A stretch of DNA of 64,000 nt. Origin: Eledone cirrhosa (Eukaryota). Numbering within the stretch: position 1 is the stretch's first letter; every line of letters starts with the position of its first letter. Location: NCBI GenBank assembly GCA_964016885.1, contig OZ024748.1, positions 31,620,001 to 31,684,000 of the forward strand, in the 5' to 3' direction. Below are positions 146 to 60,153 of the stretch, piece by piece. Position numbers and translations under genes: made by a program. The notes under the pieces were generated by a model. That model ran no database searches. It was not told the origin of the DNA and saw only the letters and a program-made list of their open reading frames with translations.

Positions 146-650
146 AAATATTAAAAAAATAATGAATAAAACAATGAAACAGTTCCTTATATTAAACAAA
201 AAAAGTTCATTATTTAACGATCGTTTCTAGGATATATATGTGTTAGAATTGGCATGCATATTCAACAGGTCTATGTACAAAATTATACAAAATTATACAA
301 ACTATCAAAATTAAATATACATACCAAATACATATATATGCCGTCTTCAGAAATAATGAAATATATTTATTGATAATAACAACAATTCAAAATTTCAGGT
401 CTGTTTGGGAACAGAATTCAAATTGACCAATGAAAATACAAAAAGTTTATGCAGTTAGGTGTGTGTATATACATGTAATTAACTTCGTTCACAGATATGC
501 ATAAAGATATGTGTTCACATGCATACGCATGCCAAAAAGATGTATGTAAATACAAAAATTCAAGGCTAATGTCTCTGTAAGTTTATAATCTACAGATAAA
601 ATATATCTACAGATATAATACATAATTATAAAATAAATATATACAACCTT
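146..650 (-). mobile_element. Non-coding HHR-bearing repeat, family A
   Basis: Flanked by (TA)n; 170-360 is homologous to 12390-12593 and to its inverted copy at 12595-12798; contains an HHR. Confidence 0.7.
206..360 (-). ncRNA. Type I hammerhead ribozyme (family A), ~116-nt stem II
   Basis: Minus strand: UUCAUUAUUU-CUGAAGA-[C..long stem with G.U pairs..A]-GAA-ACGAUCGU-U-AAAUAAUGAA; 10-bp stem I, GUU site, palindromic stem III. Confidence 0.85.
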
Positions 651-1416
651 CTATATATATATATATATATATATATATACATATATATATACATATATAT
701 ATATACATATATATATACATATATATATATACATATATATATATACATATATATACACACACACACACATATATATATATATATATATATATATACATAT
801 ATATATATATATACACATATATATATATATACATATATATATATACACATATATATATACATGTATATATACACATATATATATATACATGTATATATAC
901 ATATATTATATATATATATATATATATATATATATATATATATATATATATATATATATATATATACATATATATATACATATATACATATATATATATA
1001 TATATATATATATATATATATATATATATACATATATATATATACATATATATATACATATATATTTATATATATATACATATATATATACATATATATA
1101 TATATATATATATATATATATATATATATATATACATATATATATATATACATATATTATATATATATACATATATATATACATATATATATATACATAT
1201 ATATACACACACACATATATATATATATATATATATATACATATATATATATATACACATATATATATATATACATATATATATATACACATATATATAT
1301 ATATATATATATATATATATACATATATATATACATATATATATACATATATTATATATATATACATATATATATACATATATATATATATATATATATA
1401 TATATATATATATATA
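651..1416. repeat. Degenerate (TA)n/(CA) microsatellite
   Basis: Dinucleotide repeat with internally duplicated variant patterns. Confidence 0.97.
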
Positions 1417-2055
1417 ACAATATATTTAGAAACACACAGATACATGCGGACACACACATATACATGAATGCATCCGCACCCAACCGTGAGTTAAGGGTGC
1501 CAACTTCATCGATGTTGCTCAATGAATGATTGGGACAGACCAATCCGGTTGAACTAGACTGAACCAGTATCAGAGTTAAAATACATTATGAAGAGAGAAG
1601 AAACATTTAGATATAATTAGTAATAAAATGTATCATACCTAAACTGCTCCTAGATTCCTCGACTACGTAGTTTCGTGGCATAAACAAAAACAATACATCA
1701 TAAAGATATAGAGTCCTTGCGAGGTCTGCCGACTTATCAAGAGGATACCTCATTTTAATAGTCTCAAGAACGCGTCTACACGACGTGAGAAAGAATCCCA
1801 AAAGGCGGAGGGGGAGATAGTCACGCGATATAACGGTCGAGAAACAGAGCTAAGGCTCTTATAACCCCGAAGAAAATACCACGGAGACGGAGGGGGTATT
1901 TATATCGCAGCCGTAGAAGAGGTGGTGAAGGGGGCGAGAAGTATGAGTAATGGAAGCTTTCCAGCAGTCCCCACACTTCAAAGATTGCTCGACCAGAGGG
2001 AGTTATTAACAATATATTTAGAAACACACAGATATGTGTGTTTCTAAATATATTG
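1417..2055 (-). mobile_element. ~590-bp non-coding retrozyme-like element, family B
   Basis: Short terminal direct repeat (1417-1443 / 2008-2034), terminal foldback at 2010-2055, close homolog in tandem at 60432-61798; contains an HHR. Confidence 0.75.
1655..1746 (-). ncRNA. Type I hammerhead ribozyme (family B), U3-A8 core variant
   Basis: Minus strand: UCCUC-UUGAUAA-GUCGGCA..UGCCAC-GAA-ACUACGUAGU-C-GAGGA; GUC site. Confidence 0.82.
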
Positions 2056-57200: not shown

Positions 57201-59556
57201 ATGGAAAAGCATTACATAGGTATGTCCCTAAAGAATATTCCTATACCTCGAGAAAGGATTATACTCTCGGGATGATACAGCGAACAAACGACTTTATACG
57301 CAGAGTTAGATGGAAAACTTTCCATTTCGACAAAGGACGTAATGGTCGCACCGTGGAATACAACAAGGAAACATACGGCTTCAAATCGTGTAAAAATCCA
57401 CCTACCAACCCTCAACTGGATGCCTTTGAAGAGAACTTACTGAAGATGATTATAAATATCAAATTCAAAAAGCGGAGGAATAATAAACTCCAGAATGACA
57501 TAAATACATTCCTAAAAAAGCTGCGAACCACCAATGGAATTATTGTCAAAGCGGACAAAACATCAAATGTGTATACGATGGATGTTAATACATACAATAG
57601 CTTCATACGGAAGGAATTACATAGGAAATACAAAAAAACAAATGAGGCGGCACTGATAAACATCAACAACGAGGCACACAATATAGTCAAACACCTAGGA
57701 ATAGACGACAGAACGGAGCCACTTAGGCCATGTACCTCCACATTTAACCTCAAAGACCACAAGGTAAATTTTGATTATAACCCCACAATTAGACTTATAT
57801 GCCCGTCCAAATCGAACATCGGGAAAATTAGTAAACATATATTAGACAGAGTGATAGCACAAATGAAGAATAAACTAGTGATTAAACTATGGGGTAACGC
57901 TACCGAAACAATTAAGTGGTTTAACAATATAGCTAACAAAGAAGTATTTAAATTTATACAATTTGACATTAACGATTATTACTCATCTATATCCCCCAAC
58001 ACCTTGGATAAAGCTTTAGCATTCGCCAAAGCCAATTCTGACATAACAGACGACGAGATAAAAATCAGATTAGCTGCTAGGAAAACAATAATTAAATTTG
58101 AAAACGCCTATTGGGAACGTAAGGATAGATTAAATAACTTTGACATCACGATGGGGGCTAACGACTCGGCTCAAGTCACAGATTTAGTAGGTATTTACAT
58201 AGCCCATAGTTTACAAAGTGAGTTTAGCGACCTTCACGGTGGAATCTACAGAGACGACGCCCTTCTCCTAGTTAAGAACATAAATAACCAGAGCATAGAA
58301 AGACTCCGTAAGAATATTAGAAAGACTCTCAGAAAACAAGGCCTTAGCATAACGTATGAGTATAGCACTAAAACAGTTAACTTTCTAGACGTGACGCTTA
58401 ACCTAAATACGGGACTTATAAGACCTTTTCACAAGATTAATGAAAACTTAGCATACATCAACTGTAACTCAAACCACCCACTATCCATAATTAAATCCAT
58501 TCCAAACAGCATATCCCTTAGGATCTCCCGCCTCTCGTCTAACCGACAAATCTTCGAAGAACATGCAGAATACTACAATACCGCATTAGACAAAGCAGGC
58601 CACTTAGATAGAGTAGAATATATAGATGAAAGCCTCCGTGAAGCGCACACGAACACGCATAACACAAACTCCGGTAACACACGCACACACGCAAACACGC
58701 ATAGAACTGCAAAGTATACGGGAAATAGAAATACAACATCGAAATCAAACAAGTCACGCAGTAGAAAATATATTTGGTATAACCCCATATTAACACCTCT
58801 ATTAGTACTAACCTACCCTCTACCTTCTTTAGAATAATAAATAAGCACTTTCCAGATTCACATAGATACAGCAAAATCCTTAACACTAAATCTATTAGAC
58901 TATCTTATTCCACGTCACCAATTATAGAGGCACACATTAAGATGCTTAACGCTAAAAAGATACATAACAACACCAAAACACAAATTTACAACAATAACAA
59001 TACAATCACCACCGAACACAACAGAATATCTAATACACAACCACCCGCTAATAGGCAAACAAAACGTAACACACTTGTACAGGCATCGCAGCACACAAAT
59101 AATGCCAAAGTTGCCCAGGACAAGAACTGTAACTGCCACCTACCTGAAACCTGTCCATTACATAATGAATGTATGCAGTCTAACATGGTTTACCAATGCA
59201 CAGTGGAATCAGACAACCAGAAATGGTATTACATCGGGGCGACTGGGAATACATATAAAGCCCGTTGGTATACACACCGTTACGCAATGAAACATTCCCA
59301 GGACCGTTATGTAACTACCCTTGCAAACAAGACCTGGCAACTGAGGGAAAGTAGCCATCTATACACCCTGAAGTGGAACAAATTATCGAACGCACCCCCA
59401 TATCGGAGTGGTATGAGAAGCTGTCGATTATGCGACCTTGAGCTGTTCCACATCTTAAGTTCGAAGAATATGTTACTCAACAATAAAATCGAGAGATCAA
59501 TTTATTGTAAACATAGACTCAAAGAGAAGTTTTCGCACTACAAATCGAACCCTTAA
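57201..59556 (+). pseudogene. PLE ORF (RT + CxC linker + GIY-YIG), frameshifts near 57265 and 58790
   Basis: [82 protein letters not shown]. Confidence 0.9.
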
Positions 59557-60051
59557 CCTCTTACTCCCAAATGAGAAACTGCATATACTTAGACTTTATA
59601 CCCTCTTGTTGTATCTAAACCCTTTAATTACCCACAAAACCAATACCTATATCCCCCTATATATATATTATTATTATTACTATATATATATATATATATA
59701 TATATATATATATATATATATATATATATATATATATATATCACTTTTTATCTCCCCTCTCTCTCTCTCTCTCTATCCATCCATCCCACTATGATCAATT
59801 TAATTCTCTTTAACTCACTACATTCCACGACATCAAGTCTGCTATCAAAACTGACCAAGGAATCCTTCGACCTCTACCCCTCCCTCCATTTCAGTTTGTC
59901 ACTCTACTTCCTACCTCTTTCCCCATCATCTCTCTCTATACTATTCCGTCTGTCCCCTCACCTCCTGATTCCTCTCTCTCTATACTAGTAAATACAATTC
60001 CAAATAAATGTTTTTCTCTATATATTAAGAATTATTTCAAGAGTAACTTAC

Positions 60052-60153
60052 TATTTTGAAAATTTGGACTGTGAACAATAATTATAATTGAGTGGCTGCT
60101 ATTTGCAGTATAGCAATATAAGGTTGCACTTACCAATGAAACGGTCGTAAATA
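60052..60153 (+). ncRNA. Hammerhead (family Q), 3' pseudo-LTR copy
   Basis: UAUU-UUGAAAA-U UUGG.GUG AAC..GUU.CAC.CCAA U-GAA-ACG GU CGU-A-AAUA. Confidence 0.7.

Follow-up and report, generated by a model that had tools for sequence, protein, structure and literature searches.

Mismatched oppositions at position 10.1/11.1 of predicted type I hammerheads in Eledone cirrhosa

Nine families of hammerhead motifs, A, C, H, I, K, M, N, P, and Q, are encoded in a 64-kb stretch of the 3.0-Gb genome of Eledone cirrhosa (contig OZ024748.1, positions 31620001–31684000, hereafter the window), and all nine are, as judged from sequence, type I hammerheads in which a non-Watson-Crick opposition occupies position 10.1/11.1 at the base of stem II. 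The motifs are found in short tandem repeats and toward the 3′ end of Penelope-like retroelements. Position 10.1/11.1 is probably a tolerant slot with a restricted menu, comprising a purine-pyrimidine pair, U.U, C.A, and A.A, at which predicted self-cleavage is retained, rather than a site of selected slowing. A preliminary description of the window had noted the mismatches and read them as the same defect in unrelated families, and thus as a selected, possibly rate-attenuated subclass; the observation is confirmed, and the interpretation is partly supported and for the most part fails.

Hammerhead Motifs in the Window

Rfam returned no matches in the whole window at gathering cut-offs, and the best 150 of the 355 matches obtained at an E-value of 1 were microsatellite-driven miRNA. 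With Rfam silent, the hammerheads were located with purpose-built descriptors. Strict-core matches with a score of at least 7 numbered 201 in 1.244 Mb and 0 in reversed sequences; in 2.0 Mb of the genome, the corresponding figures were 365 and 0. Because the reversed controls yield no matches, the descriptor is specific, and the matches are not due to chance. Family letters other than C were assigned to window copies by order and content. The nine families share the core CUGANGA with GAAA and a U16.1-H17 site, with variants in Q, C, and I, and three stems surround the core, with stem I open.

The bases at 10.1/11.1 are those originally named: C.A in A, I, K, and M, U.U in H, N, P, Q, and the 8.4-kb copy of C, and A.A in the 63.3-kb copy of C. 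The family A hammerhead (216–350, minus strand, C3 to H17) has C.A at 343/228, a 116-nucleotide stem II domain, and a palindromic stem III; a second copy (12449–12583, minus) carries C.A at 12576/12461, and an inverted third copy (12601–12735, plus) carries it at 12608/12723. In family I (35460–35585, minus; C.A at 35578/35500), a U3.G8 core is combined with a long closed stem III and a GUC site, and an adjacent tandem copy (34844–34969, minus) has C.A at 34962/34884. A view of family I as dead, with no U after a short stem III, was overturned by the long closed stem III, which gives the GUC site and is predicted to permit a monomer fold. Family K is present as copy 1 (41628–41700, plus; C.A at 41635/41686) and copy 2 (42153–42225, plus; C.A at 42160/42211), the latter with a core mutated at position 4. 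The mismatch had been noted for copy 1, but both copies are C.A in the fold that includes stem I; a shorter fold using the first GAAA was dropped because, with a palindromic stem III, it lacks stem I. The family M hammerhead (44648–44756, minus) has C.A at 44749/44660 and, in the window copy, a G at position 17, where 32 of 33 copies have U.

Family C (8361–8460, plus) has U.U at 8368/8448, a U4C core variant, and an imperfect stem III palindrome, and its sister subfamily (63281–63380, minus) has A.A at 63373/63293 and a perfect palindrome. U4C is fixed in family C (65/65 copies) and is present in several other clusters. U.U is also found in family H (28785–28834, minus; 28827/28797), with C.C at the fourth position, in family N (50293–50321, minus; 50314/50303), where three further pairs and a tetraloop follow, and in family P (56068–56180, plus; 56075/56168). 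Both copies of family Q, at 56895–56988 (plus; U.U at 56902/56976) and 60056–60149 (plus; U.U at 60063/60137), have a U3-A8 core.

Pairing had been described as resuming immediately after the mismatch. This holds for C, I, K, M, N, P, and Q, in which pair 2 forms at once with a probability of 0.72–1.0 (0.23 in the second Q copy), and not for A and H, in which a C.C mismatch comes after just two pairs, and these two pairs have a probability of 0.02–0.05 in the isolated stem (0.02–0.04 for pair 2). Stem III yields intermolecular self-duplexes (−3 to −13 kcal/mol) without a hairpin, a published sign of dimeric cleavage (PMC4209133); the exception is the 8.4-kb copy of C, at −0.7 kcal/mol, and family I is not of this type. 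The stem II domains of 81–116 nucleotides at 216–350, 44648–44756, 56068–56180, and 8361–8460 have stable folds of −20 to −39 kcal/mol and far exceed helix II in the published Penelope tables that were consulted.

Paired families occur in the same window, with A-U, G.U, G-C, and an insert-plus-G-C type. An inverted pair of one family (43741–44075, both strands) has G.U at 43778/43753 (minus) and A-U at 44038/44063 (plus), with G-C in 6/17 copies of that family. The hammerhead at 60885–60962 (plus) combines G10.1-C11.1 with a U3-A8 core and is G-C in 15/15 copies, and the one at 19664–19698 (minus) is of the published minimal Penelope type, in which one extra base after A9 precedes G-C. Inverted hammerhead pairs on opposite strands, a known Penelope inverted-copy layout, are seen at 12449–12735, 18117–18340, and 43741–44075.

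Fixation within Families and Switching between Sister Repeats

Copy sets were assembled from genome similarity searches and from 118 position-chosen stretches, 20 of which flank the window. Search-derived sets lean to the best matches and hence to the state of the query; K and N were counted in the sequences collected for the whole set, rather than in searches of their own. Copy counts bear out the original observation. U.U is present in 43/43 copies of H, 38/38 of Q, 8/8 of N, and 36/37 of P, and C.A in 33/33 copies of M and 36/38 of A. Family K comprises 16 C.A and 1 C.C among 17 copies, and in this tally family C comprises 35 U.U and 2 A.A among 37. In family I, C.A is correct for the window copies and is not the commonest state, as the 31 fetched copies include 23 A.A and 8 C.A. 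The position-chosen stretches alone are concordant but small (A 13/14, K 10/10, N 5/5, others 0–3 copies). Because these counts show fixation within families, local decay is rejected, and the mismatch is a family-level trait. A lone U.U copy of an A-U family at 15220 (1/51) does fit local decay. In the position-chosen sample together with the window, from which 8 doubtful singleton clusters were dropped (225 matches to 217), 145 hammerheads are paired and 72 are mismatched: 35 U.U, 30 C.A, 3 A.C, 2 A.A, 1 C.U, and 1 A.G.

Between sister repeats, the state of the position is labile. A 310-bp tandem unit with a compact, HH9-like, retrozyme-like hammerhead (arrays L067:280–3390, minus; L087:4570–5200, plus; L123; L124) is A-U in 27 copies from three loci and U.U in 5 copies from one locus, and the two forms, compared one to one, differ at 4 sites. 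Wider counts give 35 U.U and 30 A.A copies for family C and, with overlapping loci not merged, 25 A.A and 14 C.A for family I. G-C, G.U, and A-U are all present in family L, and the look-alike clusters G17, G25, G27, G35, and G37 have A.G, U-A, A.A, A.G, and U.U, respectively. Given this switching between sisters, drift within a permitted set fits better than one selected defect, and the families cannot be said to share the same defect, since five different mismatches occur. These near-isogenic natural pairs (A-U versus U.U in the 310-bp unit, C.A versus A.A in family I) ease testing of the importance of 10.1-11.1 in a natural dimeric context.

Family I is a tandem repeat with a period of 616–617 bp (34844–35585, minus) and 1057 first-look candidates in the genome; like the 310-bp family, it has the non-LTR retrozyme trait of short tandem units that each carry a type I hammerhead. 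Arrays of another compact U.U hammerhead, with a spacing of ∼420–545 bp, are found at L070, L073, and L074, at most 100 kb from the window.

Census of Stem II Positions

A register-neutral scan, in which no stem II position is privileged, gave 315 unique matches in 42 clusters from 2.0 Mb; two clusters were removed as satellite artefacts, and 40 were tallied. To be counted, a match needed a short palindromic stem III and no more than two mismatches over eight positions; family I, Q, almost every C copy, and the insert-plus-pair type therefore fall outside the scan. A majority of copies is unpaired at position 1 in 22/40 clusters, at position 2 in 0/40, at position 3 in 1/40, and at position 4 in 15/40. 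Position 1 is G-C in 8 clusters, A-U in 6, G.U in 3, and U-A in 1, and the mismatches are U.U in 9, C.A in 7, A.A in 3, A.G in 2, and C.U in 1; C-G, G.A, and G.G are found in none of the 40. Every cluster with G at 10.1 has it paired. C is opposed to A in 7 clusters where 2.2 are expected, and U to U in 9 where 4.8 are expected. The bases at 10.1 and 11.1 co-vary even when clusters with G10.1 are set aside (permutation p 0.003, n = 29), which is suggestive only, as the clusters share ancestry and the p value is uncorrected for kinship.

The expectation that strict motif searches miss such hammerheads is borne out, in that a descriptor requiring three pairs from 11.1 overlooks 20/40 clusters. 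Descriptors demanding a base pair at this point of stem II would miss about half of the clusters scanned, so published invertebrate counts may be low. In the Rfam hammerhead families (clan CL00010), the motifs of families N and I have no hammerhead match at an E-value of 10. Against Rfam HH9, with a cut-off of 52 bits, the 310-bp unit scores 19.2 bits with U.U and 23.0 bits with A-U; because both are far under the cut-off, the Rfam miss must have a main cause other than the mismatch.

Position 10.4/11.4 is a second site of recurrent mismatch (15/40 clusters: G0, G2, G4, G6, G8, G12, G15, G16, G18–G20, G26, G29, G32, and G40), almost always pyrimidine.pyrimidine and mostly C.C, and occurs whether position 1 is paired or unpaired. 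Window examples are at 340/231 (minus), 28824/28800 (minus), 44041/44060 (plus), 42726/42750 (plus), and 18296/18325 (plus). This mismatch may identify a single lineage or be a point at which stem I docks. It is not discussed in the literature searched, although Lunse 2017 may cover it.

Host Elements

The window is AT-rich, with long (TA)n tracts and several Penelope-like reverse transcriptase (RT) and GIY-YIG frames. Hydra-type Penelope RT and GIY-YIG frames (45170–47094, minus) lie upstream of hammerhead M, and Hydra-type RT and endonuclease frames (57176–59556, plus) lie between the two Q copies. Fragments of the same kind are found at 6132–7760 (minus), and this endonuclease precedes 11/47 family C matches. 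The endonuclease is upstream in sense in 27/34 M matches and 13/43 Q matches as well; GIY-YIG is weak in Pfam (E 7e-4 for M). The motifs RWK, DKT, and CxCX5C, which define the Hydra clade (PMC8557442), are all present in Q; DKT and CxCX5C are present in M, whose N terminus lies outside the frame, and CxCX5C in C. Identity among the RT fragments associated with Q, M, and C is 61–67%. By these motifs and RT identities, C, M, and Q are assigned to one Hydra-type Penelope clade, contrary to the description of the families as unrelated. In other clusters, hammerheads with A-U, G-C, U-A, and U.U likewise lie downstream of Hydra-type endonucleases.

Hammerhead N is preceded by a Penelope-like RT fragment and GIY-YIG of another lineage (50735–52042, minus). 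This RT has no blastp match to the Q, M, and C RTs at E 1e-3 and is 28% identical to two other RTs of the window; by these comparisons, family N follows a different Penelope lineage, and the mismatch spans more than one. No consistent open reading frame of their own lies within 1.6 kb of the hammerheads of A, H, I, K, and P, and one A-like relative (L124) follows a Hydra-type endonuclease. Searching the PDB with the RT of family Q yielded no useful match.

Comparison with Published Hammerheads

The pair G10.1-C11.1 has been termed highly conserved (Cervera and de la Pena 2014, PMC4209133), in contrast to the Eledone motifs. The preliminary description had left open that the mismatch was undescribed; in fact, it is already common among published Penelope-like hammerheads. 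In File S2 of Craig 2021 (PMC8557442), by our count, 14/25 Hydra-clade elements are U.U and 1/25 is U.C, making 15/25 mismatched; a single Hydra species accounts for 11 of the 14 U.U elements, and two rows have identical sequences. C.A occurs once in that file, in PLE-X1 of Chara. The mismatch draws no comment in the portions of PMC8557442 text consulted. Among the 56 rows of Fig. S3 of PMC4209133 is a U.U example from Hydra, and the figure probably also includes U.U in Drosophila willistoni and A.A in Adineta vaga, as inferred from PDF text in which GAAA is split off. A natural U10.1-U11.1 was reported by Perreault 2011 (PMC3088659), where it is described as the most active of all mispairs, citing Ruffner 1990, and the helix II base of the axolotl HHR_Amex2, a family with ∼60,000 copies, is likewise U.U (Cervera and de la Pena 2020, PMC7229834). 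The feature is largely known already for U.U and is extended here by the frequent C.A and A.A, together with natural matched pairs.

Like the hammerheads of Hydra-clade Penelope-like elements (PMC8557442), those of Eledone are of type I, lie near the 3′ end in (TA)n surroundings, and have a short self-complementary stem III, U.U at the stem II base, and RWK, DKT, and CxCX5C in the associated frames; unlike them, they include frequent C.A and A.A and stem II domains of 50–116 nucleotides, stem II being short in the published table. The axolotl family likewise has U.U, with cleavage assisted by a dimer, and its tandem units of ∼350 bp are matched in layout by the Eledone 310-bp family, but it is one vertebrate family with U.U only, whereas Eledone has many families and several types of mismatch. 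Position and U.U mismatch are also the same as in Perreault 2011, where the mismatch is a rare variant rather than, as with mismatches in Eledone, the state of most copies in roughly half of the clusters. The minimal Penelope hammerheads (PMC4209133) resemble the Eledone motifs in being of type I, with a long helix II, a palindromic or absent helix III, and U3-A8 covariation, and their insert-plus-G-C type is present in the window. Frequent C.A or A.A at 10.1/11.1 as a recurrent trait was not found in the literature searched, although Lunse 2017 may cover these states. In the parts consulted, neither PMC6765202 nor bioRxiv 10.64898/2026.07.22.740005 treats the 10.1-11.1 pair, and an eLife pairwise mutagenesis paper (PMC9901934) gives no figure for it.

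Alternative Explanations for the Mismatch

The two bases could instead be looped-out insertions, one after A9 and one before G12, with the next pair acting as 10.1-11.1. One additional base between 9 and 10.1 has been published as a characteristic of Penelope hammerheads (PMC4209133), and File S2 of Craig 2021 files both bases under “core” columns. However, the next pair is purine-pyrimidine in just 10/22 mismatch clusters (G-C in 2), compared with 10/18 paired clusters; as it is no more often purine-pyrimidine where position 1 is mismatched, it is not replacing the canonical pair. Single substitutions convert mismatch to pair in the same register. Furthermore, the Rfam HH9 alignment sets the U.U of a tandem unit on its first stem II pair, which confirms the numbering and, at the level of sequence, places the mismatch in the true 10.1/11.1 slot. 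A double insertion is very improbable.

Selection for slower cleavage would spare uncut tandem RNA as a template for reverse transcription. This proposal is favored by the fixation of the mismatch in young families with ∼1000–1700 first-look candidates, by its majority in 22/40 clusters, by the lack, in family C, of a paired form linking the U.U subfamily to the A.A one, and by uncut RNA being the main insertion substrate of an Anolis element (PMC11167929). On the other hand, paired families are equally successful (145 versus 72 of the 217 hammerheads above), one repeat amplifies in both the A-U and U.U states, and dependence on a dimer is a brake already. Axolotl monomers cleave to 22% for U.U HHR_Amex2 and to 6% for its paired sister, although stem III also differs, and both are efficient as dimers (PMC7229834). 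Selected slowing is quite improbable, and the proposed rate-attenuated subclass has no direct support, as paired and mismatched sisters both amplify. A broader version, in which C.A, A.A, or U.U marks an overlooked subclass selected as a tuned brake, possibly gated by pH or protein, and the conserved pyrimidine mismatch at 10.4/11.4 docks stem I or the protein of the element in long-stem forms, is distinctly unlikely; were C.A to prove a brake maintained by selection, this would be relevant to the persistence of slow ribozymes in Penelope elements. The ribozyme could also be losing its job, the mismatch reflecting early relaxed selection and the fold being kept for another use, such as protein binding. 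Additional changes to the core in families with the mismatch (U4C in C and U3.G8 in I) and the weakness of stem III in U.U members of family C are consistent with such a loss, as are the Anolis hammerhead, whose cleavage was dispensable for insertion in vitro (PMC11167929), and the Naiad elements, which thrive without canonical hammerheads (PMC8557442). Nevertheless, divergent clusters retain G5, A6, G8/A8, A9, GAAA, and U16.1, almost every copy has A, C, or U at position 17, family Q has a compensatory U3-A8 in its core, and the set of mismatches is non-random; loss of function is unlikely.

Proposed Behavior of Position 10.1/11.1

If 10.1/11.1 is a tolerant slot, cleavage would occur 3′ of position 17, chiefly in dimeric RNA, and could be aided by protein, as in the Anolis element, whose hammerhead cleaved only in the presence of its protein (PMC11167929). 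The 10.1-11.1 pair adjoins the sheared G12.A9 pair (PMC11300833), and the two bases may stack beneath it in a narrow, non-canonical arrangement. Poorly fitting states, namely Watson-Crick pairs of pyrimidine-purine order and oppositions of G to a purine, would be purged, and among the permitted states the position would drift with each new master copy. Any loss of rate would count for little against the constraints of dimer formation and of probable assistance by protein. In favor of such a slot are the concentration of majority mismatch at position 1 as compared with positions 2 and 3, the restricted menu, the switching between sister repeats, the intact cores, the stem III self-duplexes, and the published activity of U.U hammerheads.

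Several points weigh against a tolerant slot. The argument from the geometric fit of pairs under G12.A9 comes from general background knowledge. The endonuclease tree (24 rows, with 12/21 inner branches open) is too weak to count origins, and the clusters are not independent. The family C sisters differ on both sides, with no paired intermediate among 65 copies, and pairing could be avoided in this family. U4C in family C and U3.G8 in family I are further departures from the core and may lower activity. Finally, C.A and A.A should be slower than U.U, going by the statement in PMC3088659, and activity data for natural C.A or A.A hammerheads were not found in the literature searched.

Other Features of the Window

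Positions 2082–5330 are occupied by an AT-rich satellite with a period of ∼276–281 bp, in which relaxed descriptors give hammerhead matches; these matches, at 2–5 kb, are false and arise from the relaxed scans. Two other retroelements, at 23655–26574 (plus) and 30527–32809 (minus), have strong RVT_1 matches (E 2.5e-24 and 6e-23, respectively) and are probably of non-LTR types, with no link to a hammerhead seen in the window.

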